Source: Alistipes sp.
Lineage (GTDB): Bacteria > Bacteroidota > Bacteroidia > Bacteroidales > Rikenellaceae
NCBI GenBank assembly: GCA_045659425.1
Contig: JAZOWW010000021.1
Span: 8,638-72,637 of the forward strand
Reading direction: 5' to 3'
DNA length: 64,000 nt
The notes under the pieces were generated by a model. That model was not told the DNA's origin. It searched no databases and saw only the letters and a list, made by a program, of their open reading frames with translations. Below, in pieces: positions 36,916 through 63,738 of the stretch; within the stretch, counting starts at the first letter, position 1; every line of letters begins with the position of its first letter. The translations under genes and the position numbers were made by a program.

Positions 36916-36999
36916 TGGTGCCCAGAATAGGACTCGAACCTACACGTCTCTCAACACTCGCACCTGAAACGAGCGCGTCTACCATTTCGCCATCTGGGC
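36916..36999 (-). tRNA. tRNA-Leu (anticodon CAG), CCA encoded
   Basis: The reverse complement reads GCCCAGATGGCGAAATGGTAGACGCGCTCGTTTCAGGTGCGAGTGTTGAGAGACGTGTAGGTTCGAGTCCTATTCTGGGCACCA. TACCTTTG box just upstream at 37011-37018. Confidence 0.9.
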
Positions 37000-40435: not shown

Positions 40436-40532
40436 TTTATTTTCACAAAATATTTGCGAGACTCGTTTTTTTGCATTATCTTTGCACCAGCAAAACAAAG
40501 GAAACTTCGCTCTAAAAGCAGTTACGATACAT

Positions 40533-40606
40533 CGCGGGATGGAGCAGTTGGCAGCTCGTCGGGCTCATAACCCGAAGGTCGTGTGGTTCGAGTCCCACTC
40601 CCGCTA
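40533..40606 (+). tRNA. tRNA-Met (CAU), initiator-like; attachment site of the prophage
   Basis: CGCGGGATGGAGCAGTTGGCAGCTCGTCGGGCTCATAACCCGAAGGTCGTGTGGTTCGAGTCCCACTCCCGCTA. It has three G-C pairs closing the anticodon stem and an unpaired 1:72 position (C/U). The T-stem needs a one-nucleotide bulge. Confidence 0.8.
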
Positions 40607-40734
40607 CTAAAAGACCGTAATCATACTGAAAATCAGTTGATTGCGGTCTTTCCCGTAAAAACGACGGGACAAAAAGGGGACAACCCTATATTTTCAGGAA
40701 TATACATTTTTGCTTCGGCGAAAATGTAAAAAAA

Positions 40735-42292: not shown

Positions 42293-42697
42293 ATGGCAAA
42301 GGTTAAAATCAATGTTGATTGGGATGACAACTATGGCGCAGCACCTGCCAATGAGGATATTGCTTGTGTTGTTACGGGTAAAACTCTTGACGAGGTAAAG
42401 GCTAATATGGCAGAGTCTTTGCGCTTACACCTCGACTGGATGCGTGACGAGGGAGATACTATCCCTGCTGAATTTCAAGGTGAATATGAGTTGGATTTTG
42501 AGTTGTCGGGCAGAGCTCTCATTCATTGTGCAGAGTCTTTGGTATCTCGTTCTGCTCTATCAAAGGCTTCAGGAATAAATGAGCGCCAGCTGGGTCATTA
42601 TTCTACTGGAGTGAGCGTTCCTCGCCCTCGCCAAATGGAAAGAATGCGACAGGGAATTAGAACGATTGTCGCACAGTTATCATTACTCTCTTTGTAG
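42293..42697 (+). CDS. hicB: Type II antitoxin HicB with C-terminal HTH
   Basis: Directly downstream of hicA. N-terminal HicB fold pattern (NYGAAPANEDIACVVTGKTLDEVKANMAESLRLHLD) and a C-terminal HTH-like SRSALSKASGINERQLGHYSTG. Confidence 0.8.
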   Translation: MAKVKINVDWDDNYGAAPANEDIACVVTGKTLDEVKANMAESLRLHLDWMRDEGDTIPAEFQGEYELDFELSGRALIHCAESLVSRSALSKASGINERQLGHYSTGVSVPRPRQMERMRQGIRTIVAQLSLLSL

Positions 42698-42758: not shown

Positions 42759-43397
42759 TTATTCCATTAACTCAATATATTGGATATCATTAACTCTGGT
42801 GTGAGGATTTGCACTCACCACATCGTAACGGACAATCTTGCCTTTACGCTTAAATAGGCATTTCTTTGGCTTACGATATGCTACTATGGTCAAACTATCG
42901 ACAACCTTAATATCGACATCTATGGTGTCCTCTTTTACTACTCCGTCAAGTGTAACCCACTCATCAGTAAAATGGAATGCTCGCTCAAAAATTATAGGTT
43001 TTGATGGTGTGGTAATACTGTCTATCTTTATGGGTTCCTCGATTATGGGTGCGGTTACTTCAATTTTTGTTTCCGTGCTAATATGAGCCATACTTTCGAG
43101 GTCGGACACCTTCAACCGTAGATTTTTAATTTCTCGTTCATACTGCGGCATAAGATTTTCCAACTCCGCTTTACGCAGAGATAGGGCGTTGATAGATGCT
43201 ACCAACTGCCCGTTCTCTGCGGTGTAATACTCGACATCAGCCAACAGCGATGTTTGATTACTCTCCAAGCGGTCAATTTCCTCTCGTTTCTCGCTGTTTT
43301 GATGCGAGAGTAGTGCGATGATACCGATTGAGATTACAAGGGCTACAATGAGCCAAAACTGCACCGATTTGAGCAGTCGTAAAATTAGTGTTTTCAT
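42759..43397 (-). CDS. Membrane-anchored coiled-coil protein of the lysis block (spanin-like role possible)
   Basis: N-terminal TM segment (FWLIVALVISIGIIALL) followed by a coiled coil. The ORF overlaps the amidase stop by 4 nt. No family recognised with certainty. Confidence 0.4.
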   Translation of the reverse strand: MKTLILRLLKSVQFWLIVALVISIGIIALLSHQNSEKREEIDRLESNQTSLLADVEYYTAENGQLVASINALSLRKAELENLMPQYEREIKNLRLKVSDLESMAHISTETKIEVTAPIIEEPIKIDSITTPSKPIIFERAFHFTDEWVTLDGVVKEDTIDVDIKVVDSLTIVAYRKPKKCLFKRKGKIVRYDVVSANPHTRVNDIQYIELME

Positions 43398-44017
43398 TTG
43401 TTTTGATGTTTTTGGTTATACAATTCTATACATTTCTTTATGGATTCGAAGTACCATTCTGCAATTTGCTCTCTGCCCTCCTCGCTCATCAGGATACGAC
43501 AATCTGGCTCATAATCGAAGAAGTAACTCTCTATGAGTACAGCAGGGCACAATGTTTTGCGGAGCATATAAAAAGCCTCTTCCTTGTCGTGGTCGCCATC
43601 GCTCATATCGCAACGCTTTCGAGCATCTGGGCAATCCTCCAAAGATTGCTCATAGAAAATCTCCGCATACTCATCAGACTCCGTTACACCCTTACTCGTG
43701 TAAACCTCTATACCCGAGGCATTGTGATTTTTGCTTGCGTTGGAGTGTACGGAGAGGAGCAAGCAATTATTTCTACCGTACTTATGACACAATGCGTTCA
43801 CTCTGTTGACTCTCGTAGCAAGTGGCACATCAAACTCCTCGGGAGTGATAATGTGGTACGGAATGCCCTCTCGGTCAAGTTTAAGAGCCACTCTGCGCAC
43901 CGTATCTCTGTTGCACTCATATTCGAGGAGTTGAGAGCCATCAGCCCACTCTGGGCTATGCTTACCTGGGGTGTTATTTCCGTGTCCATTGTCGAGAAGT
44001 ATTTGTAATATGCTCAT
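43394..44017 (-). CDS. N-acetylmuramoyl-L-alanine amidase (phage endolysin)
   Basis: ILLDNGHGNNTPGK...LLSVHSNAS...GIEVYT...PAVLIESYF matches the zinc-amidase (Amidase_3-like) pattern. Confidence 0.8.
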   Translation of the reverse strand: MSILQILLDNGHGNNTPGKHSPEWADGSQLLEYECNRDTVRRVALKLDREGIPYHIITPEEFDVPLATRVNRVNALCHKYGRNNCLLLSVHSNASKNHNASGIEVYTSKGVTESDEYAEIFYEQSLEDCPDARKRCDMSDGDHDKEEAFYMLRKTLCPAVLIESYFFDYEPDCRILMSEEGREQIAEWYFESIKKCIELYNQKHQNK

Positions 44018-44020
44018 AAT

Positions 44021-44647
44021 TTATTGAATAGGAGGTAATATGTATTGGATTTGTTCTGCAACTGCCTCGAGTCGTCCCCTTGCATAGTCAGGTGATGTTT
44101 CTGTTATATGATTGAACTCGCAAAAAATGTTGCCCACCCAACCATCATCCTCTGTCGCAAGTTTCCGTATGATAGCGGACATCGAACCAGCATTGAGTAG
44201 TAATGCCCTTGCTCTTTTGTCACGAACATTGTTCGCAACATCTTTATAGTATAAGAAATCTCTTGACGATAATTCAGAAGAGAACTTTGCAACATCTTCC
44301 ATCGGGAGGTTTTGGATGCGAGATTTCATCCCTGATGCACCTGTCCTATCGACCTCCAGTGAGATAGATAAATACTCTCTATGTGTCAAAGGGTGTGGCT
44401 GTACGACATATACACGATCAGCTTTAAGGTCGTGTAGCAACTGCCACAAAAGTCCGTAGATTTGAGATACATATTGATTGCGCCGTTTACTCTGCTCCTG
44501 CAGCTCTGCCTCTTTTTTTTGGAGTTCCAACTTGATACGAGCCTCTTGGCGTGGCTGGTCGTGCTTCCACCACGCAATCAATATTACGCCTATCGCTGTG
44601 ATGATTGGCGAAATGTAGGGTGCAAATTCTTTTAATACCTGTTCCAT
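44021..44647 (-). CDS. Hypothetical membrane-anchored protein (TM, coiled coil, globular domain)
   Basis: N-terminal TM segment (ISPIITAIGVILIAWW), a Lys/Glu/Gln-rich helix, then about 130 aa with a globular look. Unknown family. Confidence 0.4.
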   Translation of the reverse strand: MEQVLKEFAPYISPIITAIGVILIAWWKHDQPRQEARIKLELQKKEAELQEQSKRRNQYVSQIYGLLWQLLHDLKADRVYVVQPHPLTHREYLSISLEVDRTGASGMKSRIQNLPMEDVAKFSSELSSRDFLYYKDVANNVRDKRARALLLNAGSMSAIIRKLATEDDGWVGNIFCEFNHITETSPDYARGRLEAVAEQIQYILPPIQ

Positions 44648-44688: not shown

Positions 44689-46110
44689 CTATTGGAACAT
44701 TTCAGGCGTTAAAAATTCTGCATAAGATTTACTCTTTACTATTCGCTTTGCTCGGTTCTTAGGCTTGTAACGGTTGCGTATGACAACTTTTGTACAGCAC
44801 GCTGTAATGTAAATATACTTGAACCATATCGGGGATATCATCTTTGCTGTTTTCATTCTACGACTATAACTGTTTGTGTGGACCATCATTCCCCAATAGC
44901 TATTGATGGATGCTGCAAATTTGTCCACAAACTTTTCGGCATCTCCGTTTTCTGCTATCTGATTGTAGTGATGTATTGTGTCGTAGAAATGTCCCAAAAT
45001 GCGATTGGATATGTATTTTCTTCCAGGTTTCAATATCCTGCCAACAAACTTAATCCCCTTTGAATAATGAGTGATATGACACTTCTTTGGATGCAGCTGC
45101 ACTCGGAGCTGTTCTTTCAAAAACTCGTCAATCTCCCCCTGCAACCCCCTCAAAGATTCCAGATTGTTGCTAACAATCTTCCCATCATCCATAAACCGCA
45201 CATACTTCTCAAACTTTTTAATCTTTACGATAAAATAGTCGAGAGGGGTAAGATAAAAGTTGGCTTCATCTTGTGATGAAAGGTTGCCCGGGGCGATACC
45301 TATGTTCGGATCATTGTAGCGTAAACTTTTGCTCGGAGGCAGACCCTCCCACGCTGATAATGGGGACATACGACGACAATTCTTCTGTGGACAATGGAAC
45401 GCAGTAATACGAGCGAGCCATAATACGAGGTCAATATCTTCTCCCTCATATTTGTCGCGAATAAATTGCTCCATCATCTCCCAGAGGATAGATTTGTCGA
45501 TACTCATAAAATAGCTGTGAATATCGAACGAGAGCACCCAACAATCCCTCGTATAGGCATTGCTTTCCTCGTATATCATACGCTCTAATTCATTGGCTGC
45601 AGAGTCTGGTCCTTCGCCTTTGCGACAATTCTTTGATACATTGCCGCATTCGTGGTACCAGGCTTCATAAAGGGGATTTAGGCGCATTTTCAAGAAATGA
45701 TGCACAATGCGATCTCTAAAAGCAGAGGCTATTATTTCTCGCTTAACTGGTCTATCGACTATAAAACAATAACTCTGCGCTGGCTGGTAGGTGCCATCGC
45801 AGAGTTCTCGATGAAGTTGCACGAGTTCTTCCTCTGCGTTCATCGAAAATTCGATACACTGACCTTTTGACTTCTTGTGTTTGATGCAATCAGCATACGC
45901 TTTCAGCACCTCCACAAACGGAATGTCATAGACTCTCTCTCCAATTGCTGCAACGGGCACGACATAGTTTGCATTGTTACGGTTGTTGTTGTTGGCGTTA
46001 CCACTGTTGAAGTTGATGTTCCAGGAGGCTGTCGCCACTGTCTTGGTCTTAACCGACTGCTCGCCGGTGGGCGACCCAATCGAAAAGTCGAGTTTCTCTC
46101 CCATAACCAT
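44689..46110 (-). CDS. DGR reverse transcriptase (ORF as drawn includes the TR in its 5' part)
   Basis: N-terminal DGR-RT pattern (LKAYADCIKHKKSK...LHRELCDGTYQPAQSYCFIV..PVKREIIASAFRDRIVHHFL). DGR-specific I/LGxxxSQ motif (APGNLSSQ). Catalytic RFMDDG. Adjacent avd-like gene and TR/VR pair. Confidence 0.9.
   Translation of the reverse strand: MVMGEKLDFSIGSPTGEQSVKTKTVATASWNINFNSGNANNNNRNNANYVVPVAAIGERVYDIPFVEVLKAYADCIKHKKSKGQCIEFSMNAEEELVQLHRELCDGTYQPAQSYCFIVDRPVKREIIASAFRDRIVHHFLKMRLNPLYEAWYHECGNVSKNCRKGEGPDSAANELERMIYEESNAYTRDCWVLSFDIHSYFMSIDKSILWEMMEQFIRDKYEGEDIDLVLWLARITAFHCPQKNCRRMSPLSAWEGLPPSKSLRYNDPNIGIAPGNLSSQDEANFYLTPLDYFIVKIKKFEKYVRFMDDGKIVSNNLESLRGLQGEIDEFLKEQLRVQLHPKKCHITHYSKGIKFVGRILKPGRKYISNRILGHFYDTIHHYNQIAENGDAEKFVDKFAASINSYWGMMVHTNSYSRRMKTAKMISPIWFKYIYITACCTKVVIRNRYKPKNRAKRIVKSKSYAEFLTPEMFQ
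45944..46026 (-). repeat. DGR template repeat (TR), 83 nt
   Basis: On the coding strand it reads TCCTGGAACATCAACTTCAACAGTGGTAACGCCAACAACAACAACCGTAACAATGCAAACTATGTCGTGCCCGTTGCAGCAAT. It is AAC-rich and matches the VR at 76 of 83 positions. Confidence 0.85.
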
Positions 46111-46118
46111 CGTAACGA

Positions 46119-46511
46119 TTATGGCTCTGGATTTAAGGTCTTCTTAACGCTCTCTGGCAGTGCTGCCAGCGTAGCATTTTTCCAACCAGTTGCTTGACGA
46201 CCGATGTTCTCCAGTAGTAAGATAACATTGGCATTATCGTCAATACTGATTATACGCCTGTCTTTACATATCCGAAGAAGTAATTTCAGCGTACCGAATT
46301 TTACAATGAACTGTTGAAGAAGTTTGAATCGCTCCAAACCTCGTGTCATATTTGCTGATTGTATTAACTCGCAGCAAGCAACTCCCGTCATAAAGAGTTC
46401 ATTGCCGAAGTCGTATTTATACATCTTTGGAAAGTGTACACGCAACTCCTCGATTGTCATCAGCAACGAGTACATATCGCGGTACACATCTAACTTTTGT
46501 GCAACTGCCAT
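46119..46511 (-). CDS. avd: Avd-like accessory variability determinant (four-helix-bundle protein)
   Basis: 130 aa. The pattern L.VY...L...I...FPK..KY.FG..L......I..AN...R....L..F......L..LL.I..D...IS is typical of the four-helix-bundle / 23S-IVS family. Located immediately upstream of TR-RT. Confidence 0.75.
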   Translation of the reverse strand: MAVAQKLDVYRDMYSLLMTIEELRVHFPKMYKYDFGNELFMTGVACCELIQSANMTRGLERFKLLQQFIVKFGTLKLLLRICKDRRIISIDDNANVILLLENIGRQATGWKNATLAALPESVKKTLNPEP

Positions 46512-46528
46512 TGTTTAGGATTTTGCCA

Positions 46529-46536
46529 CAAAGGTA
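46529..46536 (-). promoter_or_regulatory. -7 promoter box (TACCTTTG) upstream of avd
   Basis: TAnnTTTG on the minus strand, 17 nt before the avd ATG at 46511. It sits in the loop of an imperfect inverted repeat (AGGAATTTTTGC / GCAAAATCCT). Confidence 0.5.
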
Positions 46537-46552
46537 GCAAAAATTCCTAAAC

Positions 46553-46939
46553 TCACTCAATCCATTGTCGTTCTTTGGCATAGGCGACTGCTTTAGCAGC
46601 CACCTCTTTAGCCATTGAACGCCAGTCTTGCAGAGCTTGGTATTCTGCTGAATACTCTATGCGTTTTGTTTCTGAAGCGCACTCCTTGTTCAGATAATTA
46701 AGGCTGATAGCCGTAACATCGTCATTAGAGTACCTCTGCGATATAATTGCAGAGATTATTGACCCATAGGAAAACTCTCGTCCGATTTCGACAGAGAATA
46801 TTTTATAAACCTCGACCCCGAGGTCATTCACAAACTTTTCTTCGCCCCACGATATTGTATATTTGCGGCGAAGCCTGCTCTCTGACATTTGAACTAACGG
46901 AGGGCGCACCTCGAAAGTTTGAAAATTTTGAACTTCCAT
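46553..46939 (-). CDS. Hypothetical protein between DGR target and avd
   Basis: 128-aa ORF in the same orientation, tightly packed. No recognisable motif. Confidence 0.4.
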   Translation of the reverse strand: MEVQNFQTFEVRPPLVQMSESRLRRKYTISWGEEKFVNDLGVEVYKIFSVEIGREFSYGSIISAIISQRYSNDDVTAISLNYLNKECASETKRIEYSAEYQALQDWRSMAKEVAAKAVAYAKERQWIE

Positions 46940-46958
46940 TTTTCCAAAAAAAATTTCG

Positions 46959-46973
46959 ACTCCCTTCGGGAGT
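46959..46973 (-). terminator. GC hairpin downstream of the VR (terminator-like; candidate DGR target-site hairpin)
   Basis: The minus strand reads ACTCCC-GAA-GGGAGT, followed by CGAAATTTTTTTT. It lies 33 nt after the target stop codon. Confidence 0.5.
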
Positions 46974-46980
46974 ATTAAGA

Positions 46981-47012
46981 GTTAAAGTGTTAAATTGTTA
47001 AAGAGTTAAACC
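46981..47012. repeat. Four phased GTTAAA repeats (8-bp period) overlapping the target-gene stop codon
   Basis: gttaaagt gttaaatt gttaaaga gttaaacc, at an exact 8-nt spacing. Confidence 0.8.
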
Positions 47013-50000
47013 TTTGACTTTTCGATTGCTGCAACGGGCACGACATAGTTTGCATTGTTACGGTAGCTGCTGTTGGCGCTACCACTGATGAAGTTGATGC
47101 CCCAGGATGTTTGATAATTGTACTCGGTTGAACTCCAATGCCAGCTATTGGTAATTTGAGGGAACAGCGTGTCGCCATTATTATCAACAAGGTTGCGCGG
47201 TTTTGCGAAAATTGGAATAGAGTGATCGTACTCGGGTTCCGTGTCTGGAATTGTATAACCCTTGCGGTGATACCAATACAAGCGCGACAGCTCGCCTTCC
47301 GATGGCAAATACCAATTGCCCTGTTTGTAGGCGTCTGCGAGTACCTCACCCTCCATTACCGAAGGTTCGTAGAAGTTGCAGATTGATGCAGCTCTATAAT
47401 AGTAGAGGCGAAGAATATAGTCCTCGCTATTGCTATCTGCGTTAAACTCATTGTATTTTTCATCAAGTTCTGCCAAAGAGTTTGGGATATCCAAGTCTGC
47501 AAGAAGAAGCATTTCGTTTCTGTACGCAATAATTTTCTGCGTGTTGCCTCGTCCATCCCAGTCAGAGAATGAACCTGCAGTAAACTCCCTAAACGCATCC
47601 CCATCAGGAGTAAGATACAATGACTCCCAATCGGAGTACTCGGGGACATAGCTTGTCGAACCATTATAATTAGTGTAGTTCTTGAGTGTAGGTATATCTC
47701 CTGTTGGGTTAGACTGCGTATTTATACCCCAAGTTGCAGTGCCTGGTCGATGACGACCCACTATTCGAATCAAACCGTCCTCTGCCTCGTCTATTTGATA
47801 CACAATGCCAACTACGGTCTTATTTCTATCAAGAACATCATCAAATGTGCCATCTGCATACGCAAAATCACCTACTCTAACAGCTCTCTTATAGAAGCCT
47901 ATTGTCTTCGAAATAGAGATTGCTACACCATCGCTTAAACGAGTTGTCGTCGCTGTTATTACAGCAGTTGGTTCTCCAACTGTGGCATCGTTTTTCAGCG
48001 TCAGCACACCTGTATTCTCGTTGATAGTGGCGTATGTTTCATCATCAATAGACCATTTTATAGGTGTAAAGTAGTTAGCTGAAGCTGGCGAGGGGACTGC
48101 TTTATATTCATATTTACCAGCCTTATATATGTAGCTTGAGCCCGTAATATGTAGCGCACTGATGTTACGAGTAGTGTATATTACATGCAAATCGTTGTCG
48201 GGGTCATCGATGTCGCCAAATGCTTGCATTAAAATAGCCTTCTGCTCGTAGTTAATAGTAGAGCTTGAAGATGTAGCCAAGTTGATAGTTCCCGAGAGTT
48301 TAGCCCCTATCTGGGCAAGATAGAGCAGATGATCAACCGAGAAGTTTGTCCAAGCAACACCATCTATCTCTACTACTGCGAGGATACGATTCTCTCTATT
48401 TAGGCACGCTTCAATGATAATCTGGCTATTCACTCCTGGACAACCGCTAATATCTACCTGGGTCATCGAGTCAGCACCCTCAATGGTAAATGTTGAGAGT
48501 TTTGACAATCCTGATAGACGAAGGCGTTGGATAGTAGCAGGGAGTCGCATTTCGGTCAGACTATCTGTTGAAGGTAGTGTAATGCCGACTATTGGCGTGC
48601 CTCGGAAGTCTATTCGCTCGATCATCTCGCTGGCAATGGTTACAGCTCGAGTTAGAGAGGTGTTATAGGTAACAACGACCTCCTTGAGCATCGTACACGC
48701 AGATAAATCGAAGCCAGAATTGGAGAGCTGCGTATTCGGTGTATCGGCAGTATGTGCCAGGATGAGCCTCTTTAAGCGACGACATTTGGGAAGATTAGTT
48801 TGAATGTCAATTTGTCCAAGACCCTCCAAGCCTTTCTCTGTTGTTGTGCCATCAGCACCGACGGTATAGGTTGATATCTCAGTCAGCAAATCTGCATCAT
48901 AGATAGAGAAAGTAACCTCGTTTGCGCCGCTTGCAGTGATACCGTTCTCGAAATATGCAGGACTTCCAGCCTCAATGTTTCGTTGAGATTTAACACCTCC
49001 CGAGCCCCAGTTGAGTGATGCGTAGATAGGACAATAGTGGCGTAGTGCGACACCTGCGCCTCTCTTCCATAAACGAAGCATCAATACATTTGAAGAACTT
49101 TCGCCTGTGGCACACTTCGAGTCCCAATAACGCTGTCGGTACTTGTAGAAGTATCGAGTAAGCTCGAGCTTATCTCCATACGCCATCGAAAAGTTACCCG
49201 TATTTGCATACCCCATACCATCCACATTATAAAGAGCCTCGCACCAATGCGACCAATACTCTTTGTATTTAGCAAAAAGAGCTGAAGCGTTAAGTCCTCC
49301 GCTACGCATTGCTACATACATCGCCTTGATATCAGCTTCCCAGACTTTGGCAACACAATCCCATAAACCCGACAATCGTCCATTGAAGATTGGTGTGCCA
49401 GCAGAAGTGGTGGCAGTATATGTTCCTGTGGCAGCATCGTATGTTTCCCCGAGAACTGTTCCAGTCTGCCCCGTTGTAGCATCAAAGGAATCTCCCCATT
49501 CGTGGAAGAACATCCATCGAAGCAGACCAGAGTTGTTAAATAGGTTGATGGTGTCCGTATCTCGTATGAATACGAGCCAATTGGCATTATCTACCGTTAC
49601 ATCATCACACGCGATAGACATATTCTTATCCATCGAGTCAGTGCCGAGGTGGTATGTAAGGAAAATAAAGTAGAATATAGCACTCCACTTGTTAAGATAC
49701 CTCGAGTACTCGGTGGCAAACTTGGCATATCGATATGCTGGGGTATCGGTTGTAAATACCTCCTCTCCATAGGTGTACTGCTCGTAGCCATCTTCTGCTA
49801 TCGACAACTTTCGATAATTGCCATAGCGCAGTCTATATCGCTCGGCGACGGTAGGATTGCAAGACTGAATCCAATTGTGAAAGCGACGAAGAGCAGCTGT
49901 TTCTACATTGGCTTGCGACACCTGGTCTGAAGATCCTGCAATACCAAGTTTCTCCCCTGTCACGAGCGACTTTTTCGGTACTCGAGCATAGTACAAAGTG

Positions 50001-52723
50001 GTTGTAAGGCTATCAAAGCCATCGTTCCATTTAGCCTCGTCAAGATGACTCATAAAGAAGTTGATATTGTCATCTACCTCCCAAATCTGATTCTTATCCG
50101 ATTTTTTCGAGTACCCAAACATTGATGGGCTATACTTGTTGTTTATGAAGTTGTAGAGCGACAAGAACGAAACGGTGGGATTTCCAGCGTTATCAAAAGT
50201 TCTGCGAAAACCTATCTCGGGGAAGCCACTTAAAGACTGTCTAAATGTGATATCCAGACCTGCTGCATCTTGTTCTGCTTGGCGAGCTGTCAAGATACTT
50301 GGGTAACCGCTGGCAGCAGTAGCGACTGCCACCAATATATCCTGGTACACATTCATTGCAAGCATATTGAAAATGCCTTCACAAGACGCAAAGTTTACCT
50401 TGTGGACAAAGTCGGTTTCGGCGGCTTCCACACCAGGAGTGATAGAAAACTTTGTTATCACTACATCACCTTCAGGAAGATTGACAACCCAAGCATTATC
50501 ACTATTAAACTCGAATGTTTCTGCCCAATTCTTATAAGGCAGGGGGTAGTTGTTTGACGATGTGCCATCGCCATTTATCTCGTGCGCTCCAGCTGTAAAA
50601 CTTGCTCGAGCATAGCCCAACTCCTCATTCCATTGAGGATTGACAAATACAGTCCTATCGCAGGTGCGTGGATCGTTCTTTGAAGTGGGCAACTGCTTCA
50701 TCTCCCAAATGATGTATGGTGTGTTCGGAAGAGCTGTAAGAACCTTTGCCAAACTTACAGCACCAGCACTATCAAGAACATCATTTCTTTTTGCGATTGC
50801 AATCTTTGCCTCCAAATCAGGTGTATCATAGGCGTAGTTGTCAATCATTTGACGATAGTTCAGGCTCTTGTCATATACTCTAACGGTATAGAGTATAACA
50901 TCGCAATCGGGCGAGCCGATTACGACCTCTTGAGGTGTCGTTTGCCTCCACTCGGAGGTGTCGTAGTTCATCATACGCACGATGACACCATTAACATACA
51001 TATATGCGATGTTCGCATATGTTGTTGTTGAACCTTGCTCCGAGTTTCCTGTGTCGTTCACGCAGGTTGTTGTTTGTCCATCAATACAGAAACCAACGCG
51101 AACACGCTGTTCATCGCAGTACAAAGTGTGTATCTCTCCAGCAGCACAATGAAGTTCTACTCGGTTTGCATAGACTACAAAACCGATACCGTCATTCAAA
51201 CAACGAATAATCTGGGCATCGATATTGGTACAGTTTCCCGTTTCAAACTCAAATTCGATAGTCTTTCCTGTACGAGCAGCCGAAGCTTCAGCATTAACGC
51301 CAAAATCTGTCGCAAAAGGCGATAATCCCGATAGTGTTATACTCTTGCCAGCTTTAATGTGGAAACCGTCGTTATGGAAACCGTTATCACCAATAAGGTC
51401 GAAGTTGTCAGAGCGCACAACCGTACAAGTTCGGACTCCTCCGTATTCCGAGTGCCAATCCTCCGCATCGCTATCAGCATTAGTTCTACCTGCTGCCGAA
51501 AGATGCACCTTACATTCTGAAGCAGCTTCCAATGTTACTCCTGCAGATATAACCTCCAACTCAAACGATGTACTTGCAGTACCTACCTGAATGGTTGGTA
51601 CGATGGTGCCAAGATAGGCATTATCGCCAAGTGTTAATCTCCACTCCTGCATTCCTGAGGTAAGATCATTGAGCAGCTGCACTTGCTGTGATGTAACACT
51701 CGATAGTGCAGTACCAGACTTGTCGAGTACGACAAAGTTTACGGTTACGATATCACCAGGATTACCCGTTGGGAAATAGAAGTAGTAGGGAATTGATGCC
51801 GTGCCATAAAGTTTTGCTTTTCGGGCTGTATCTTTTCCGATACAAACCGAAGGCGATGATAAACCTCGCTTGATAAACGAGGTCGTGATAACATCTGTGG
51901 TGATTCCATACTCTGCATTTGTTGCATAGAGCTTAATGGTGTGAGAACCGTATGCCAAAGCATTAGCGGCATCAATAATAAAATCATATGTTGAGTTGTT
52001 GATTGTTGCCAGCTGCTCGGTCAGAGGATCATCATCAATTATCAAGTGTACTTCAGCCGAGGTACCACGACAAGCGACACGGAGGAGCCATCCAGCATCA
52101 CGCACAGAACTCTCATCGTAGCTGTCATCAATTGCCAATATGATTTCTCGAGTGTCGAGGGTGAAAGTCCATTGGCGCGATTTGCCGTGTGCATTGCCGA
52201 TAGTCAATTGCACAGAGTTCGTTTCTTGCGTCAGGTATGGACCGAGGTCGATGGAGAACTCTTGTCCACCAGCTGGGAGGCTCATCGATAAGGCATCGAC
52301 AACTGTTGAGTTGATAATAACTCGAGCATAGCCTGGCTCACTATCCAAATCTGCGCTATCTGAACCATAGTATGAGTTGTATGTGAACTTGACAATGTTG
52401 CTGGCACCCTTCACAACCGTTGAAGCAGGTTGTTGCGTTATTCGTGCTGCGAGAGTGTAGTCTGCACTACCCGTCTGCTCATAGAACTCGACCTGCGTCA
52501 ATATCAAACTTTGTTTGTTGTCTGGATCTGCAGCCCACTCGTTATAAGAATCAACACTGGCGAAACCACGCACCGTTGCCTTGCCCGTTTCGTCAGATGT
52601 TTTATCCAAATATCCTAATCTTTCTCCAAAAAGCTTTTTGATAAACTTCTCGACAAATTCTCCCGAATAGCCCTCCCATGGTGTTGAGATGTCAAGAATA
52701 TCCTTTTCGATTTTTTCAGCCAT
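47006..52723 (-). CDS. DGR target: 1905-aa tail-fiber / receptor-binding-like protein with C-terminal variable DUF1566 / C-type-lectin-like domain
   Basis: Largest ORF of the tail block. LRR-like segment (LKRLILAHT...LTEMRLPATIQRLRLSGLSKLSTFTIEG). Ig-like segment (ATINENTGVLTLKNDATVGEPTAVITATT). C-terminal GNWYLPSEGELSRLYWY, and a VR-encoded end SWGINFISGSANSSYRNNANYVVPVAAI. Confidence 0.85.
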   Translation of the reverse strand: MAEKIEKDILDISTPWEGYSGEFVEKFIKKLFGERLGYLDKTSDETGKATVRGFASVDSYNEWAADPDNKQSLILTQVEFYEQTGSADYTLAARITQQPASTVVKGASNIVKFTYNSYYGSDSADLDSEPGYARVIINSTVVDALSMSLPAGGQEFSIDLGPYLTQETNSVQLTIGNAHGKSRQWTFTLDTREIILAIDDSYDESSVRDAGWLLRVACRGTSAEVHLIIDDDPLTEQLATINNSTYDFIIDAANALAYGSHTIKLYATNAEYGITTDVITTSFIKRGLSSPSVCIGKDTARKAKLYGTASIPYYFYFPTGNPGDIVTVNFVVLDKSGTALSSVTSQQVQLLNDLTSGMQEWRLTLGDNAYLGTIVPTIQVGTASTSFELEVISAGVTLEAASECKVHLSAAGRTNADSDAEDWHSEYGGVRTCTVVRSDNFDLIGDNGFHNDGFHIKAGKSITLSGLSPFATDFGVNAEASAARTGKTIEFEFETGNCTNIDAQIIRCLNDGIGFVVYANRVELHCAAGEIHTLYCDEQRVRVGFCIDGQTTTCVNDTGNSEQGSTTTYANIAYMYVNGVIVRMMNYDTSEWRQTTPQEVVIGSPDCDVILYTVRVYDKSLNYRQMIDNYAYDTPDLEAKIAIAKRNDVLDSAGAVSLAKVLTALPNTPYIIWEMKQLPTSKNDPRTCDRTVFVNPQWNEELGYARASFTAGAHEINGDGTSSNNYPLPYKNWAETFEFNSDNAWVVNLPEGDVVITKFSITPGVEAAETDFVHKVNFASCEGIFNMLAMNVYQDILVAVATAASGYPSILTARQAEQDAAGLDITFRQSLSGFPEIGFRRTFDNAGNPTVSFLSLYNFINNKYSPSMFGYSKKSDKNQIWEVDDNINFFMSHLDEAKWNDGFDSLTTTLYYARVPKKSLVTGEKLGIAGSSDQVSQANVETAALRRFHNWIQSCNPTVAERYRLRYGNYRKLSIAEDGYEQYTYGEEVFTTDTPAYRYAKFATEYSRYLNKWSAIFYFIFLTYHLGTDSMDKNMSIACDDVTVDNANWLVFIRDTDTINLFNNSGLLRWMFFHEWGDSFDATTGQTGTVLGETYDAATGTYTATTSAGTPIFNGRLSGLWDCVAKVWEADIKAMYVAMRSGGLNASALFAKYKEYWSHWCEALYNVDGMGYANTGNFSMAYGDKLELTRYFYKYRQRYWDSKCATGESSSNVLMLRLWKRGAGVALRHYCPIYASLNWGSGGVKSQRNIEAGSPAYFENGITASGANEVTFSIYDADLLTEISTYTVGADGTTTEKGLEGLGQIDIQTNLPKCRRLKRLILAHTADTPNTQLSNSGFDLSACTMLKEVVVTYNTSLTRAVTIASEMIERIDFRGTPIVGITLPSTDSLTEMRLPATIQRLRLSGLSKLSTFTIEGADSMTQVDISGCPGVNSQIIIEACLNRENRILAVVEIDGVAWTNFSVDHLLYLAQIGAKLSGTINLATSSSSTINYEQKAILMQAFGDIDDPDNDLHVIYTTRNISALHITGSSYIYKAGKYEYKAVPSPASANYFTPIKWSIDDETYATINENTGVLTLKNDATVGEPTAVITATTTRLSDGVAISISKTIGFYKRAVRVGDFAYADGTFDDVLDRNKTVVGIVYQIDEAEDGLIRIVGRHRPGTATWGINTQSNPTGDIPTLKNYTNYNGSTSYVPEYSDWESLYLTPDGDAFREFTAGSFSDWDGRGNTQKIIAYRNEMLLLADLDIPNSLAELDEKYNEFNADSNSEDYILRLYYYRAASICNFYEPSVMEGEVLADAYKQGNWYLPSEGELSRLYWYHRKGYTIPDTEPEYDHSIPIFAKPRNLVDNNGDTLFPQITNSWHWSSTEYNYQTSWGINFISGSANSSYRNNANYVVPVAAIEKSKV
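47025..47107 (-). repeat. DGR variable repeat (VR), 83 nt, last ~28 codons of the target gene
   Basis: Differs from the TR at 7 positions, every one a TR adenine. On the coding strand the changes are AAC->GGC, AAC->ATC, AAC->AGC three times, and AAC->TAC. Confidence 0.85.
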
Positions 52724-52909: not shown

Positions 52910-53440
52910 TTACTCCTCCTCGATATAATAAAGTTGTCCTGGCTCAAATGTGTTGTCGGCAATCATCTTTTCCATTACCTCTTCACTCTCCACTCGCTGG
53001 GGCGTGAGTAATTTTATTTGAGCTTGGATGCCTTGTATGTTATTAACCACCGATTGAAGTGTTGATGTTTCCAGAACACTCGTATCATCATCGGTTGCAC
53101 CCGTCCATAATAGTACATCGAGAGCCCCAGGAACAGGGCAAGCTCGCTCTCCCTTTGGGAAAGCACTATCAATAACATACTCTATGAGAATATATCGTAG
53201 TTGTCCGTTGCCGATATGTTTTTCAGAGAGTGCCAGGTGCGATGATAATATCTTTCCATCATCCGAAATCGAGCAATATTTTCGTTTGTCGCCATTTCGC
53301 TCCACGATGAACTTACCACACATCTCGTCAGTGTAATATTGTACCTCGAGGTGTGCTGGCACATCGACTTGTGCGCCATCTTTATAGAATTTGTGCGAAA
53401 CGGTGAAGTCGCCTCTGCTATTTTGTTTTCTTGTAGCCAT
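52910..53440 (-). CDS. Hypothetical phage tail/baseplate-block protein
   Basis: 176-aa ORF, co-oriented and abutting its neighbours. No motif recognised. Confidence 0.45.
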   Translation of the reverse strand: MATRKQNSRGDFTVSHKFYKDGAQVDVPAHLEVQYYTDEMCGKFIVERNGDKRKYCSISDDGKILSSHLALSEKHIGNGQLRYILIEYVIDSAFPKGERACPVPGALDVLLWTGATDDDTSVLETSTLQSVVNNIQGIQAQIKLLTPQRVESEEVMEKMIADNTFEPGQLYYIEEE

Positions 53441-53441
53441 A

Positions 53442-54572
53442 TTATCCTATATAAAATTCAGGTAACGATTCAGCCTTATTAAATCCGCTTCCCTCCGCAG
53501 CTTCTGCATAGTGGAATTTGAAAGTGAAACTATCTGCCTCCATCGTGGCTCTTTCTGTCTTATACTCCTCGACAATAATCTTTCGATATGTGCCATTCTC
53601 AAGAAGGATGTATCTGTTTGTTGAACGCAGGAACTCGTGCCACAGGTTTTCTTCCTGCGCCGTTACGATATAGCCCGTATTTACCTCCCACGACTTTACA
53701 TAGGCATTATGTACCTCTGTTTCCTTTCTACGCACCATTGAGGTTTGAACATCTCCTTTTGCGGAGCTTACTACCTCGCCCGTCGCAGTAATCGTATCAA
53801 AGCCCCCAAGTGTATTCTGAAAGAAGAAATGCGTGTGCGAACTACTGCGAGGGCGTACAATAAATCTTTGAGGGTTAATCACAACACTATCGTCAGTATT
53901 TTCGTCAATGCCTCCATAGATGTCGTATGCGACAACTTCATCATCGATTTGAAGCATTTCTGATAGTATTGCGATTCTATTATACGAACAATCGATCCTG
54001 TACAGGGTTAAATCCTGGTCAGCAACCTCCAAACCGAAAACGACTGCCTGATGCGTGCGGTAATAAATCTTGGCAAAGATCTTTCGGTGGCTTGTTGTAG
54101 GGTATGTAATGCCCTCATCAGGACCCTCGTTGCAAATGACAAAAGACAGCTGCTCTTTCACTCCTGGTGAGGTGTAGCAGATTTGTGGTCGCCAGGTCAA
54201 AAAGTTGTGCTGAATAAATTCATATTCATTAGAGATTTCAAGCTTATCGTATCCGCCAAAAATTGCATATATAGAGTATGACCAAACAGTAGCCTCATCA
54301 GTCTCATTGCGTATTTGTATGGAAACTCTATCGAGCGGATACACAACCTTTGCGACATCTGTTATATGAGGAGTGTAACTTTTACTATAATTTCGTATAA
54401 TTTCTGATATACACAATCGTATATTCGAGTCTATTGCATACAACCTAAATACAGTAGATGGAGAAGTATCTGAGTGTATAACAATAGGACAGCTAACATC
54501 TTCGCCGATATCAGCAAGGATGTCTGCCATATTACAAGAGAATATCGACTTGGTTTGTTTAATCGCACCCAT
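53442..54572 (-). CDS. Hypothetical phage tail/baseplate-block protein
   Basis: 376-aa ORF. Called from position between the tape measure and the fiber. Confidence 0.45.
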   Translation of the reverse strand: MGAIKQTKSIFSCNMADILADIGEDVSCPIVIHSDTSPSTVFRLYAIDSNIRLCISEIIRNYSKSYTPHITDVAKVVYPLDRVSIQIRNETDEATVWSYSIYAIFGGYDKLEISNEYEFIQHNFLTWRPQICYTSPGVKEQLSFVICNEGPDEGITYPTTSHRKIFAKIYYRTHQAVVFGLEVADQDLTLYRIDCSYNRIAILSEMLQIDDEVVAYDIYGGIDENTDDSVVINPQRFIVRPRSSSHTHFFFQNTLGGFDTITATGEVVSSAKGDVQTSMVRRKETEVHNAYVKSWEVNTGYIVTAQEENLWHEFLRSTNRYILLENGTYRKIIVEEYKTERATMEADSFTFKFHYAEAAEGSGFNKAESLPEFYIG

Positions 54573-54627
54573 ATATAACTTTTTACTACAAAATTACGCT
54601 TCTATATTATGTATTGAAAGGACAATA

Positions 54628-56655
54628 TTACACCCTCTTTAATACTCCCTGTGCATATATCTGTGATGAATCTTCTCGAGGTGAGATATTCGTTATTGCA
54701 AATGGAATACCCGTCTTGGTTTCACTTTGTGTGCTATTAAGAGGGATTGTTAATGTAACGGCAGATTGTGAGGTGTCTGAACTTTGGTCATACACCTCTA
54801 CCGTAACAACTACTTCAGAGGTTACTTTGTATTTAGATACAGCCTTAAACTTCATATCCTCATAATCTCCCCAATACTCTATATTGACAATATTTTTATC
54901 ATCTTCAGAAATTGTCATTGGAGCCTCAATGAGTTCAACTCGGGTTGCGATATGGTCAATATTGGCTATGAAGGTGTGAGTGATCTTCTTAATGAAGAAA
55001 ACTTGTCCATATACCATAATCTTACGATACAATCGCAAATCGGCTATCTCTTGTAATGACAAGAACACATCCATTGTTATTACTCGCCTATTTTCAGCCA
55101 ACCATTCTGCAAAATGTCTATGGAAGCGACGGTATAATACAGCTGGATCAATAGACAAGTTACTATTTGCCCACTCGCCAGTATTGGAGTGGATCTTGCT
55201 GGTTGGGCGTTCAAAATAGACACCTTTATCTACCAACTGATTATTTATTAAGGCTCCAATCCAAATATCCGATGATCTTTCGTCTTCGGCAGCAGGGAAC
55301 TTGATAATAGGACAAACCTGATGCAATGTAATAGAGGGACTCAAATCATATACAGAGGTAACGGGAATACATCTCACGCACTTAAAATCCACGCTATTGT
55401 CAAACGAGTTTTCCTTCTCATCGTCAGATGCTACCTTGTGTAGTTTGTGCAATAACATATCCATATACGGCAAAGTGTATTGTGAGTTTGTAGCAGTTGT
55501 AACTGTCATCTTCTTTCCTGAATACATATCGCCTGTCGCAAGATTGCGTACAGCAACATATTCACTACTGTTCTCAATGGTTTGGATAACACTCAGCATA
55601 TTACTAACATCCACAATAGAACCGCTGGTAGCTCCTGATGACTCGCTCTCTGTTGTATAGGTGTTTTCGCTATCGTCGTTGGAATAACCAAAGGAATATG
55701 AAGACGATTCCTCTCGTGAAAGAGAATATTCATCTAACACTTTATTGGTCCAGTCTATGATTGTGCTATCTGCTAAAACCTCTCTGTTTGTCTTCAAAGC
55801 AAATGATTGTCCCTCCCTAAATATCGAGGCACAGAAGAGTCGTGCGATGTTTGTTACCAAATCCAGCACAGTGCATTCTGGTAACATATCTGCCACATCT
55901 AATAGAAGCTTGTAGTTTTCTGTTTGTTGGAAACCGTAAAGAGCGCATAGTTGTTTGCTACGATGCAATCCAAGTATTGCGAGTGATTCATATAGTGTTG
56001 ATATTTTTTCACTGACGCTAATTCTTTTAAACGCCTCAGAAAGGATACTTGCCACTTTAACAGCAGGGGTTACAACGCTCATTATTGGAGCCCAGTAGTA
56101 ATTGTGGTACTTAACAATATACTCTGCTTGCTCTGCACCAATATCATTTTTCGTATATTCGACATCTGTGATGTTCTCTTCCCCTACAATCATCGGAATT
56201 TCAAAATCTTTGATGAACTCAGCTTTACCGTCCTGAATATATCTAAGATGCTGGTTAAATTGCTGAATGTAGGAGTTGCCTCTGTTTACCTCTATCCTCG
56301 ACAGATGCGTGAGCTTATGAATATACCCACCCCATTCATCCTCTAAATCTCGACCAGCAAAGGTGTAATTTAGTTTGCCATCCTCCACGCTATCATACTC
56401 CAACCGTCCCCAAAACAGAGGAATACCGCCAGCGTGTATCGATACGGAGAGTTGCTTTACATCTGGCTCTCGATACATTGCCGCAAGGTAGCCAAATACA
56501 GACTTGTTTTTTGCAGTAGGCAGAAAGGCAATGCTCGTTGAATACGCAATAGGGATGTGCGTGTCATCGAGCATTGGATTCTCCATCTCTATCTCAAATT
56601 CGTATGACGGGTCGATATCAAGCGATACTCCCGAGGCTGTTATAATCTCAATCAT
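54628..56655 (-). CDS. Hypothetical phage distal-tail-like protein
   Basis: 675-aa ORF starting 2 nt after the tape measure stop. Called from position only. Confidence 0.45.
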   Translation of the reverse strand: MIEIITASGVSLDIDPSYEFEIEMENPMLDDTHIPIAYSTSIAFLPTAKNKSVFGYLAAMYREPDVKQLSVSIHAGGIPLFWGRLEYDSVEDGKLNYTFAGRDLEDEWGGYIHKLTHLSRIEVNRGNSYIQQFNQHLRYIQDGKAEFIKDFEIPMIVGEENITDVEYTKNDIGAEQAEYIVKYHNYYWAPIMSVVTPAVKVASILSEAFKRISVSEKISTLYESLAILGLHRSKQLCALYGFQQTENYKLLLDVADMLPECTVLDLVTNIARLFCASIFREGQSFALKTNREVLADSTIIDWTNKVLDEYSLSREESSSYSFGYSNDDSENTYTTESESSGATSGSIVDVSNMLSVIQTIENSSEYVAVRNLATGDMYSGKKMTVTTATNSQYTLPYMDMLLHKLHKVASDDEKENSFDNSVDFKCVRCIPVTSVYDLSPSITLHQVCPIIKFPAAEDERSSDIWIGALINNQLVDKGVYFERPTSKIHSNTGEWANSNLSIDPAVLYRRFHRHFAEWLAENRRVITMDVFLSLQEIADLRLYRKIMVYGQVFFIKKITHTFIANIDHIATRVELIEAPMTISEDDKNIVNIEYWGDYEDMKFKAVSKYKVTSEVVVTVEVYDQSSDTSQSAVTLTIPLNSTQSETKTGIPFAITNISPREDSSQIYAQGVLKRV

Positions 56656-56656
56656 A

Positions 56657-63373: not shown

Positions 63374-63395
63374 ATGTTTAGGAAAAAAACTTTCC

Positions 63396-63403
63396 CAAAG
63401 ATA
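63396..63403 (-). promoter_or_regulatory. -7 promoter box (TATCTTTG) upstream of the BRCT gene
   Basis: TAnnTTTG on the minus strand, 22 nt before the ATG at 63373. Confidence 0.5.
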
Positions 63404-63481
63404 GTGATTTTCTTTCAATCTGTCACGCTTCGTAGTATATATAAGAATGGAGAACTTGCAACATAAGTAGCCATATAGCGA

Positions 63482-63547: not shown

Positions 63548-63738
63548 CAGATGTGACGGTAATGTGATTACGCCCTTTCTTTTTTTCTGCGAAAAGATTA
63601 AAAGAAAGTAAAGCATTGATACATAGCATATTGCCTTCTTTTCTTAAATATAATAGCGTTTATTTCTTTCTTTTATTGCCAAAATAAAAGCCTATCTATT
63701 TGCCTTTTGTTCGGGAAGAAAACTTCCGAAACAAATTA

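Follow-up and report, generated by a model that had tools for sequence, protein, structure and literature searches.

Read on the minus strand of the window (the whole 64-kb stretch of DNA analysed), the ORF list gives a target gene, a short gene designated orf128, an avd-like ORF, a template repeat (TR) and a reverse transcriptase (RT) gene, in the order claimed by an earlier note that had described a prophage-borne diversity-generating retroelement (DGR). The target ORF (52723-47006, minus strand) codes for 1905 aa and contains the variable repeat (VR; 47025..47107, minus strand), whose 83 nt correspond to codons ~1873-1900. It is followed by orf128 (46553..46939, minus strand), a conserved 128-aa gene lying between target and avd, by avd (accessory variability determinant; 46119..46511, minus strand, 130 aa) and by the DGR RT ORF (44689..46110, minus strand), whose product has 473 aa if translation starts at the 46110 ATG and 471 aa if it starts at a conserved ATG at 46104. 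None of the target, Avd and RT ORFs is interrupted. While the avd, TR, RT order stood, the TR (45944..46026, minus strand, 83 nt) proved not to be intergenic: it is contained in the long RT ORF, which reads it in the frame of the VR.

The two repeats have the sizes and identity initially given: both are 83 nt long, with 76/83 positions identical, 7 differing and an offset of 1081 nt between the copies. The repeat occurs in two copies only across the 64-kb window, for a chance expectation of 0. As claimed, the differences are confined to adenines: all seven mismatches fall on TR adenines (hypergeometric P = 3.8e-4 for 7/7) and 0/54 non-A sites differ. The reported codon changes (AAC to GGC, AAC to ATC, three AAC to AGC and one AAC to TAC) were all exact, as was the count of 29 TR adenines, 22 of which belong to AAC or AAT codons; in the VR frame, the TR contains ten AAC codons and one AAT codon. 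When the alignment was extended, non-A divergence appeared on both sides of the 83-nt core, which reflects the repeat boundaries and not a breach of the adenine rule. At the 3' end, VR and TR share an identical block of 38 nt with a short G+C-rich core, GTCGTGCCCGTTGC, after which the flanks part (CGAAAAGTC… for the VR, TGGAGAGAG… for the TR).

The conserved 3' flank of the VR holds a tandem array of four 8-nt units, TTTAACNN (46979..47010, minus strand), which begins within the stop-codon region of the target gene and provides a TAA in all three frames. This motif has a single site in the window (3 overlapping matches versus 0.14 expected), and in 17 related loci it was found only directly 3' of the VR; two of these loci (L017 and L018) have RTs with 41-45% identity to that of the window. 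A GC hairpin, ACTCCC-GAAG-GGGAGT followed by a T run (46946..46973, minus strand; a terminator-like match), lies ~50 nt 3' of the VR and has no counterpart at the TR. It is kept in all relatives, a stem change in L010 being compensatory (CCCCC/GGGGG); L017 and L019 have equivalent GC hairpins with 4-nt loops, and L021 has a GC inverted repeat. One simple reading of the hairpin is a terminator for the target gene; it may also, or instead, be a DGR target-site hairpin.

The prophage setting was borne out by a tRNA-Met gene, an integrase, an endolysin and a tape-measure protein encoded upstream of the target. The tRNA-Met gene (40532-40607, plus strand) is followed by a tyrosine integrase gene (40735-41916, plus strand), and the two make up the left end of the prophage. 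Homology to related prophages extends only as far as ~40444-40470, beyond which the host flanks are unrelated: when the integrase and seven ORFs of the host flank, eight window ORFs in all, were compared with the related loci by tblastn, the integrase alone matched. Downstream of the RT (42759..44647, minus strand) are a 208-aa ORF (PHROG 38864), an Amidase_3 endolysin gene (44017-43394, minus strand) and a gene for a DUF6549 protein. The tail module upstream of the target (52910..60940, minus strand) starts with the tape-measure gene (60940-56657, minus strand; PHROG 25337, E 3.8e-120), which is followed by ORFs of 675, 376 and 176 aa and then by the target. Taken as a whole, the locus very probably holds an intact DGR of the form target-X-avd-TR-RT, in a temperate tailed phage integrated beside a tRNA-Met gene.

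The X of this formula, orf128, has 19 homologues at 58-98% identity, and wherever the context was read the gene lies between the ~1905-aa target and avd. Its product has no match in Pfam, PHROG or NCBIfam. An AlphaFold2 model (pLDDT 87.5) gave no significant structural match in the PDB and, in BFVD, matched uncharacterised phage proteins only, some of them from crAss-like phages.

The target protein and its DUF1566-type tip

The VR is in frame and codes, as claimed, for residues ~1873-1900 of 1905 (SWGINFISGSANSSYRNNANYVVPVAA), after which the target gene codes for just IEKSKV and a stop codon. The usual place of a VR in a DGR target is the C-terminus of a domain with a C-type-lectin or Ig fold. 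The repeat overlaps the end of a match to the Pfam domain Lcl_C (DUF1566) that spans residues 1799-1897 (E 1.5e-8, 35.4 bits for a cut-off of 34.9). A profile of the C-terminal domain also matched the last 45 residues of PDB entry 8q4e (E 0.003), the C-type-lectin-like domain Lcl-CTD of Legionella (PMC11162425). A phmmer search of the PDB with the last 204 residues returned chance matches only, and an AlphaFold2 model of the last 305 residues, built from a 5-sequence alignment, had a pLDDT of 33.6 and did not confirm the C-type-lectin fold.

The position of the gene, last of the tail-gene run and downstream of the tape-measure gene, together with the type of its C-terminal domain, suggests that the target is a receptor-binding or tail-fibre protein. 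An active DGR might instead act on a protein of another kind, such as a superinfection-exclusion or cell-surface protein produced from the prophage: bacterial DUF1566 DGR targets such as Legionella LdtA are found at the cell surface (PMC5758913), and the N-terminal 1600 residues of the present target show no match in the PDB or Pfam and no recognisable tail-fibre domain. We consider this unlikely, since the gene is part of a near-contiguous run of ORFs on one strand, preceded by the tape-measure gene and three further ORFs of the tail region and with the lysis genes downstream, since a protein of this size encoded at this position is typically a distal tail or fibre protein, and since its N-terminal half falls into two phage protein families, PHROG 14959 and PHROG 24896 (function unassigned for both).

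Turnover of the variable repeat in related cassettes

We compared eight cassettes: that of the window and seven relatives (L001-L004, L006, L009 and L010), namely five Alistipes MAG loci, one IMG/VR contig and one assembly contig. Over the eight cassettes, 100 TR/VR mismatches are located at TR adenines and 3 at other nucleotides, the latter all at the 5' edge, in the first one or two nucleotides of the repeat; further cassettes showed the same adenine pattern on inspection. Lineage-specific changes at non-A positions are present both in a TR and in its own VR (GTCGTGCCC / GTGTTGCCC / GTGCTGCCG; GCAGCA / GTAGCA / GTGGCA). These matched changes indicate that each VR derives from its own TR by copying.

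The VRs also differ far more between phages than the genes that carry them. Between the window and L001, divergence is 21.7% inside the VR and 1.3% outside, with differences at 15/29 A sites and 3/54 non-A sites; between the window and L008, it is 20.5% inside and 2.1% outside. In near-identical phages, VR divergence is thus 10-17-fold above that of the rest of the gene. This adenine-restricted turnover across related cassettes, with all components present and intact, upholds the original interpretation of the locus as a DGR. As a relative only 1.3% divergent outside the VR differs from the window by 21.7% inside it, the element, judged across related phages, looks recently active in retrohoming.

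The window VR itself has changed less, with 7/29 TR adenines differing versus 12-16/~30 in the relatives, a difference that a recent reset, or a smaller number of mutagenic rounds, could explain. The low figure also speaks for a fossil, i.e. a complete-looking cassette in which retrohoming has ended and the A-specific differences are relics, and decayed derivatives do exist within the lineage: L007 has lost avd-TR-RT while retaining a diversified VR, and L005 carries a VR/TR hybrid repeat, with the target fused to the RT. We nevertheless judge a fossil to be very unlikely. The three ORFs are intact, as are the catalytic motifs of the RT; a frozen VR would show drift at non-A sites, none of which differs in the window; and phages that are 1-2% divergent have completely different VRs, so that activity must have been very recent on the scale of the lineage.

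The earlier note had named Bacteroides phage DGRs as an established class, which they are. The close relatives of the window cassette are in Alistipes MAG contigs, not in Bacteroides, and the nearest isolated phages, the Bacteroides uniformis phages F2/F4/F1, show only ~35% RT identity. A megablast search of 50,697 phage records with the cassette gave no match, and searches of IMG/VR with exact TR-end and leader patterns returned nothing, or L009 only: the DGR lineage of the window is rare in these two collections. Going by isolate names, several of the related Alistipes MAGs come from animal rectal samples.

The reverse transcriptase, Avd and the RNA around the template repeat

The best PDB match of the RT is 8ub7_A (E 6.3e-14), the sequence of which we take to be that of the Bordetella phage bRT, a DGR RT; the group II intron RT LtrA follows at 1e-5. 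The motifs that had been reported, PGNLSSQ and FMDD, are present and stand in the alignment opposite IGSLTSQ and YMDD of 8ub7_A. RTs of the DGR clade are marked by [I/L/V]GxxxSQ where QGxxxSP would otherwise stand, and by a YxDD catalytic box. The protein also matches PHROG 1423 (E 1.2e-70) and Pfam RVT_1, and assignment to the DGR type is supported by these comparisons. Residue 68 is the first to align with the Bordetella RT, downstream of the TR and ~35 nt past it. The upstream ATG has comparative support as the true RT start: it is itself conserved, indels preserve the reading frame, and in some members no other start codon is available.

Avd, which accompanies most DGRs but not every one, was recognized by PHROG 3206, 'Avd protein of DGR' (E 2.5e-20), by Pfam bAvd (E 8.8e-10; 39.5 bits, 0.5 bit under the cut-off of 40) and by NCBIfam DivGenRetAVD (E 1.5e-7, well under its cut-off); a search of PDB sequences gave no meaningful match. 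That the TR is a plain partial duplication of the 3' end of the target gene, with an adenine bias due to chance, next to an RT of another class (group II intron, retron or defence) is a negligible possibility: weak, sub-threshold NCBIfam and PADLOC matches to group II, Drt and retron RT models are expected of any RT and here fall far under the curated cut-offs (group_II_RT_mat, 70.5 bits versus 300; retron_St85_RT, 24 versus 235; Drt2, 30 versus 390; Drt3a, 22 versus 200), the DGR RT is the best PDB match by eight orders of magnitude, an Rfam scan of the window at gathering thresholds detected only four tRNAs, with neither a group II intron nor a retron RNA among its matches, the RT is flanked by Avd and phage genes, and the adenine bias is significant in the window and family-wide (100 versus 3).

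The element TACCTTTG (46529..46536, minus strand) lies 18 nt before the avd ATG and may be the promoter of a transcript covering avd, TR and RT. It fits the Bacteroidetes -7 promoter consensus TAnnTTTG, and this form is kept in 8 relatives.

The segment that runs from the avd stop codon towards the TR (46045..46125, minus strand) is almost invariant over the eight cassettes, even in L010, which is ~68% identical overall. Within it are the conserved 46104 ATG, a pair of predicted hairpins (46125-46101; 46069-46051) and the 5' strand of a predicted duplex. The fold of the window sequence here has a z of -3.6, and RNAalifold predicts a 15-bp duplex around the TR, pairing 46093-46077 with 45947-45932. 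The 3' strand of this duplex, CAATTGGAGAGAGAGT (45932..45947, minus strand), comprises the last 4 nt of the TR and the TR-specific flank; as it differs from the VR flank (CGAAAAGTCAAAGG), the latter part appears to be IMH*-like. Five one-sided changes keep the pairs of the TR-enclosing duplex and two pairs are broken in L010. Compared with shuffles, RNAduplex gave p ~0.01 in the window lineage and no significance in L010, L017, L018 and L019, and a cross-locus RNAduplex matrix did not separate cognate from non-cognate pairs. Compensatory changes seen by eye between the window and L017 in the TR-flank duplex are suggestive and fall short of proof of covariation.

Comparison with known DGRs and proposed mechanism

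The prototype, the DGR of Bordetella phage BPP-1 (mtd-avd-TR-brt), has the same general anatomy: a tail protein target with a C-terminal VR, a same-strand avd-TR-RT core, adenine-specific transfer from TR to VR, an RT with the xGxxxSQ motif and a GC hairpin downstream of the VR. Moreover, the predicted pairing of the region upstream of the TR with the TR 3' end and the sequence after it resembles the avd:Sp 'cPRT Stop' duplex of the Bordetella DGR (bioRxiv 10.1101/2023.10.23.563531). The differences lie in the target (Mtd is ~380 aa long; the present target, with its DUF1566-type tip, has 1905 aa, an unusual size for a tail protein), in the 140-nt non-coding spacer that separates TR from RT in BPP-1 and is absent here, where the RT ORF starts upstream of the TR, in the IMH, which in Bordetella starts with a 14-bp G/C-only stretch whereas only the short G+C-rich core is found here, and in two extra elements, the conserved orf128 and the TTTAACNN array beside the VR.

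The nearest phage RTs, at 33-45% identity, are those of Bacteroides phages (B. uniformis F1/F2/F4 and B. salyersiae BS-TP1) and of the uncultured human gut phages MT835523 and MT836212; bAvd genes are annotated in the DGR cassettes of the nearest Bacteroides phages. These DGRs share with the present one the target-avd-TR-RT order, DUF1566-like VRs (…WSSTE…, …VRPV…), a GC hairpin 3' of the VR and the TTTAWC array, complete or as a remnant. In MT835523 and BS-TP1 the TR is inside the RT ORF, as here, whereas in F2/F4 and MT836212 the RT begins after the TR. In MT835523, MT836212 and F2/F4 the VR is carried by a short separate ORF (236-270 aa), and here by a ~2000-aa tail protein; orf128 is missing from those phages. 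The DGRs assigned to category 'd' by Wu et al. in 2018 (DUF1566/CLec2 VRs, including Legionella LdtA), with architecture B1-X, likewise combine a C-terminal VR overlapping DUF1566, an avd-TR-RT core and an unrelated ORF nested between target and core (PMC5758913). However, Legionella LdtA is a bacterial lipoprotein diversified by a DGR that resides on an integrative conjugative element, whereas the present DGR is in a prophage; and nested ORFs are not conserved among DGRs according to Wu et al. (PMC5758913), whereas orf128 is conserved lineage-wide. A TR within the 5' end of the RT ORF also characterizes the DiGReF 'group 3' (Schillinger et al. 2012, PMC3521204), from which the present element does not differ categorically. 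We therefore rejected the TR-inside-RT-ORF arrangement as a novelty, the annotated RT CDS of BS-TP1 also containing the TR.

Sequence comparison shows the anatomy, the adenine rule, the presence of a DGR-type RT and Avd and, in related phages, VRs that have been overwritten repeatedly from their cognate TRs. If the element works like the Bordetella phage DGR, a transcript would begin upstream of avd and extend over avd, the conserved leader, the TR and the RT gene. A complex of RT and Avd would bind the structured RNA around the TR and reverse transcribe the TR, copying C, G and U faithfully and misincorporating opposite adenines; the priming chemistry is a part of this scheme that we infer. 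The cDNA would then take the place of the VR at the 3' terminus of the gene for the 1905-aa tail protein. The identical 3' block of 38 nt would guide it there, probably together with the flank specific to the VR, the TTTAACNN array and the GC hairpin. Each of the eleven AAY codons could thereby come to encode any of 15 amino acids, and each of three others any of 4, so that the C-type-lectin-like DUF1566 tip could exist in ~5.5e14 protein variants. If the target binds a receptor, such variants would alter receptor specificity and host range.

If the RT starts upstream of the TR, then the TR and the conserved leader belong to the RT coding sequence, and the RNA that positions the template would be mostly upstream of the TR or inside the RT CDS, not in a non-coding spacer. 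That the RT is translated from an ATG upstream of the TR and, in addition, that the TTTAACNN array is required for cDNA homing is, taken jointly, a doubtful proposition. How DGR cDNA synthesis is primed and how the cDNA homes are still poorly understood, and three conserved flank elements offer concrete candidates for a part in these steps: the pre-TR leader, the TTTAACNN array and the hairpin.

Phage DGRs, the avd-TR-RT core and DUF1566-type VRs were already established, and general knowledge of DGRs is unchanged. What the locus provides is a clean, intact phage DGR from a little-sampled lineage, and its family constitutes a natural series for DGR function and decay: active cassettes with differing TRs, a VR x TR deletion (L005) and an avd-TR-RT deletion (L007).

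Anatomy of the cassette and its prophage setting

The repeat finder returned a single long direct repeat in the window, with a 1081-nt offset and two copies only: the 83-nt TR (46026–45944, minus strand) and the 83-nt VR (47107–47025, minus strand). When the two copies were aligned on the minus strand, 76 of the 83 positions were identical and all seven mismatches fell on TR adenines, which number 29 (hypergeometric probability of this occurring by chance, 3.8e-4). The repeat length, identities, adenine count and codon changes claimed in an earlier note on this DNA were exactly reproduced. Outside the 83-nt core, the TR and VR copies differ on both sides at bases of every kind, and these differences delimit the repeat. 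The VR is read in the frame of the target, its product being SWGINFISGSANSSYRNNANYVVPVAA, and is followed in that protein by just IEKSKV and a stop codon. The TR contains ten AAC codons and one AAT codon, each of which can give rise to 15 amino acids and to no stop, as well as ATC, AGT and TAT codons, each giving 4 amino acids; the potential diversity computed from the TR amounts to ~5.5e14 protein variants out of 4^29 DNA variants.

The ORFs lie on the minus strand in the order that had been proposed, namely the target (1905 aa, 52723–47006), orf128 (128 aa, 46939–46553), avd (130 aa, 46511–46119), the TR and the RT (473 aa, 46110–44689). The RT ORF matches Pfam RVT_1 and PHROG 1423 (E 1.2e-70). 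Its best match among all PDB sequences is 8ub7_A (328 aa, E 6.3e-14), which we take to be the Bordetella phage DGR RT (bRT), the second being the group II intron protein LtrA (E 1e-5). In the alignment with 8ub7_A, the two motifs singled out beforehand find their counterparts: the GxxxSQ-type PGNLSSQ lies opposite IGSLTSQ and the FMDD box opposite YMDD. A group II, retron or Drt identity was rejected, since the corresponding models scored the window RT far under their curated cut-offs and Rfam found no intron or retron RNA in the window. The 130-aa protein is assigned to Avd by PHROG 3206 (E 2.5e-20); it also matches NCBIfam (E 1.5e-7) and Pfam bAvd (E 8.8e-10, 0.5 bit short of the cut-off).

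The C-terminus of the target, which holds the VR, scores slightly over the gathering threshold of Pfam Lcl_C/DUF1566, in keeping with the domain claimed for it. A small profile of this domain aligns with the final 45 residues of PDB entry 8q4e (E 0.003); this entry is the C-terminal domain of Legionella Lcl, a C-type-lectin-like DUF1566 domain that forms trimers and binds glycosaminoglycans (PMC11162425). From the profile matches we infer a C-type-lectin-like fold for the target tip, the AlphaFold model of which is unusable (pLDDT 33.6).

Ordinary chromosomal sequence fills the leftmost 40 kb of the window, with NrdJ (18182–20722), a GpsA-like gene (33110–34261), a glycosyltransferase and the tRNAs Ser-TGA (4924–5009), Ser-GCT (6381–6468) and Leu-CAG (36916–36999). 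The prophage region starts at a plus-strand tRNA-Met (40532–40607), rightward of which lies the integrase (40735–41916), and its right end is beyond the window edge. The integrase is followed on the minus strand by genes for a DUF6549 protein, an Amidase_3 endolysin and a 208-aa phage protein, then by the DGR, beyond which come three ORFs with no assigned function and a 1427-aa tape-measure protein, so that the target closes the tail module and is its largest gene. The related loci are homologous to the window from ~40444–40470 onwards, i.e. from ~60–90 nt to the left of tRNA-Met and not within the gene; the chromosomal flanks are unrelated, so the same phage family resides in differing chromosomal backgrounds. 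The segment 40444–40607 (plus strand) is either a tRNA and upstream sequence conserved between hosts or a segment carried by the phage.

Two other prophage ORFs deserve mention. A 134-aa ORF adjoining the integrase (42293–42697, plus strand) has a weak, sub-cut-off match to a HicB-like antitoxin (E 0.011). The other is a 372-aa ORF (62498–63616, minus strand) whose last ~90–140 residues hit the C-terminal portion of PHROGs for NAD-dependent DNA ligase (E 2e-10), which is unusual in the midst of structural genes.

VR divergence and decay among related loci

One genome per species was scanned for loci encoding a related RT, which yielded six, five in Alistipes MAG contigs (71–189 kb, RT identity 80–100%) and one on a 13-kb contig binned as Lachnospiraceae. 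Further cassettes were added from IMG/VR (L009), from metagenomes (L007 and L008) and from contigs with orf128 homologues (L010–L016). In eight cassettes with both repeats, 100 TR/VR mismatches fall at TR adenines and three elsewhere, the latter all at nucleotide 1 or 2 of the 83-nt frame. Non-adenine positions of the TR differ from lineage to lineage, and the non-A variants of every TR recur in its cognate VR, indicating that TR-to-VR copying was repeated after the lineages split.

The population-type comparison that the earlier note had asked for was made on related assemblies instead of reads. The Alistipes relative L001 diverges from the window by 1.3% over ~3 kb of the target outside the VR and at 21.7% of VR positions; 15 of the 29 A sites are changed versus 3 of the 54 non-A sites, and these three changes trace to a TR difference. 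For L008, the figures are 2.1% outside the VR and 20.5% inside. Judged from these comparisons, the VR is a divergence hotspot between near-identical phages.

Two relatives appear decayed. L007 (contig JAEIGA010007784.1, 820–1052) carries a clean 1.7-kb deletion corresponding to window 44814–46546, with which the candidate promoter, avd and the TR were lost and only the final ~125 nt of the RT were left; it still has the target, orf128 and a diversified VR, which would thus be an orphan, frozen copy. L005 (contig CANQFR010000067.1, 7223–10961; RT identity 70%) has a single, hybrid repeat, VR-like in its 5' part and TR-like in its 3' part and flank. Its target ORF continues in frame into the RT, the frame closing at 10018 within the RT match, and both orf128 and avd are missing. 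VR x TR recombination would be expected to yield just this arrangement, and L005 looks like a dead DGR that arose through such a deletion. The assignment of the L005 contig to a Lachnospiraceae bin may be erroneous.

Conserved elements around the repeats

The TR is located within the RT ORF and shares its reading frame with the VR. Upstream of the TR, all members keep an ATG (46104, MGEKLDFSIG…), the leader indels all have lengths that are multiples of three, and in L006, L013 and L010 no alternative start codon was found after the TR and before the conserved N-terminus of the RT. The same layout is found in L017, a human gut phage whose RT is only 45% identical, and the annotated RT CDS of Bacteroides phage BS-TP1 likewise contains the TR, whereas in phages F2/F4 and in the distant locus L018 the RT begins downstream of the TR. 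TRs overlapping the RT ORF form a known class, DiGReF group 3 (PMC3521204).

The ~80-nt segment from the avd stop to the TR is near-invariant in cassettes whose identity elsewhere is ~68%. Two local hairpins and a 15-bp duplex are predicted by RNAalifold; the duplex would pair 46093–46077 with 45947–45932 (the last nucleotides of the TR and its TR-specific flank) and thereby enclose the TR. The window RNA folds with z = -3.6, better than 100 of 100 shuffles. The predicted duplex is similar to the 'cPRT Stop' formed by TR-upstream and TR-downstream sequences in the Bordetella RT-Avd-RNA cryo-EM structure and predicted for 207 of 278 DGRs (bioRxiv 10.1101/2023.10.23.563531). Because its statistical support is confined to the window lineage, we regard the TR-enclosing duplex as suggestive.

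Two short motifs were also noted in this region. GTTAAGACYAAG(ACAGTG) lies directly upstream of the TR in the window (46027–46050, minus strand), L017 (8870–8890) and L018 (1628–1645). The region is coding in the window and L017 and contains stop codons in L018; being common to coding and stop-containing subfamilies, the motif suggests an RNA- or DNA-level element, not a protein constraint. The second, GTCAGTGTATCGAATTTTC, 19 nt within KGQCIEFSMN of the RT (45839–45864, minus strand), includes a small hairpin (ATCGA-ATTT-TCGAT) and has wobble positions that are invariant across the window lineage. Since these positions vary in the L017 counterpart, its conservation may reflect mere protein-level constraint and short divergence.

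On the 3' side of the VR, every member carries a tandem array of four to five copies of the 8-nt motif TTTAWCNN (46979–47010, minus strand, in the window), placed directly after the target stop codon and putting a TAA in each of the three frames. In the window the motif has no other occurrence, and in 17 loci, including L017 and L018 (RT identity 41–45%), it is confined to the post-VR site. We know of no earlier description of this array. Next to it, in every member, come a GC hairpin whose loop measures 4 nt and whose stem shows a compensatory change in L010, and then a T run; DGRs are known to carry GC inverted repeats on the 3' side of the VR (PMC5758913).

Homologues of orf128 (58–98% identity) lie between the target and avd wherever the context was read, and no family could be assigned. 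The model of the protein (46553–46939, minus strand), which is a confident one (pLDDT 87.5), shows a beta-sheet followed by a long helix, and its structural neighbours are solely uncharacterised phage proteins from crAss-like and other gut phages. We lean towards a tail-related role more than a DGR accessory one, because L007 retains orf128 without avd, TR and RT. Finally, 18 nt before avd lies a conserved TAnnTTTG motif, which agrees with the -7 promoter consensus of Bacteroidetes and is a candidate promoter.

Place among known DGRs

The defining DGR features that gave a clear result in silico (the adenine-restricted TR/VR pair, the DGR-type RT, the C-terminal VR in the target and the adjacent Avd) are all present in the window element, and the earlier note, which described it as a complete prophage-borne DGR, was correct in both description and interpretation. 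According to the scheme of Wu et al. (PMC5758913), the cassette is of architecture B1-X with a DUF1566/CLec2-type VR. Among isolated phages, B. uniformis F2/F4/F1 come closest (RT identity ~35%), and the closest record overall is an uncultured human gut phage (45%). The window cassette adds a further member to an already known class of DGRs.
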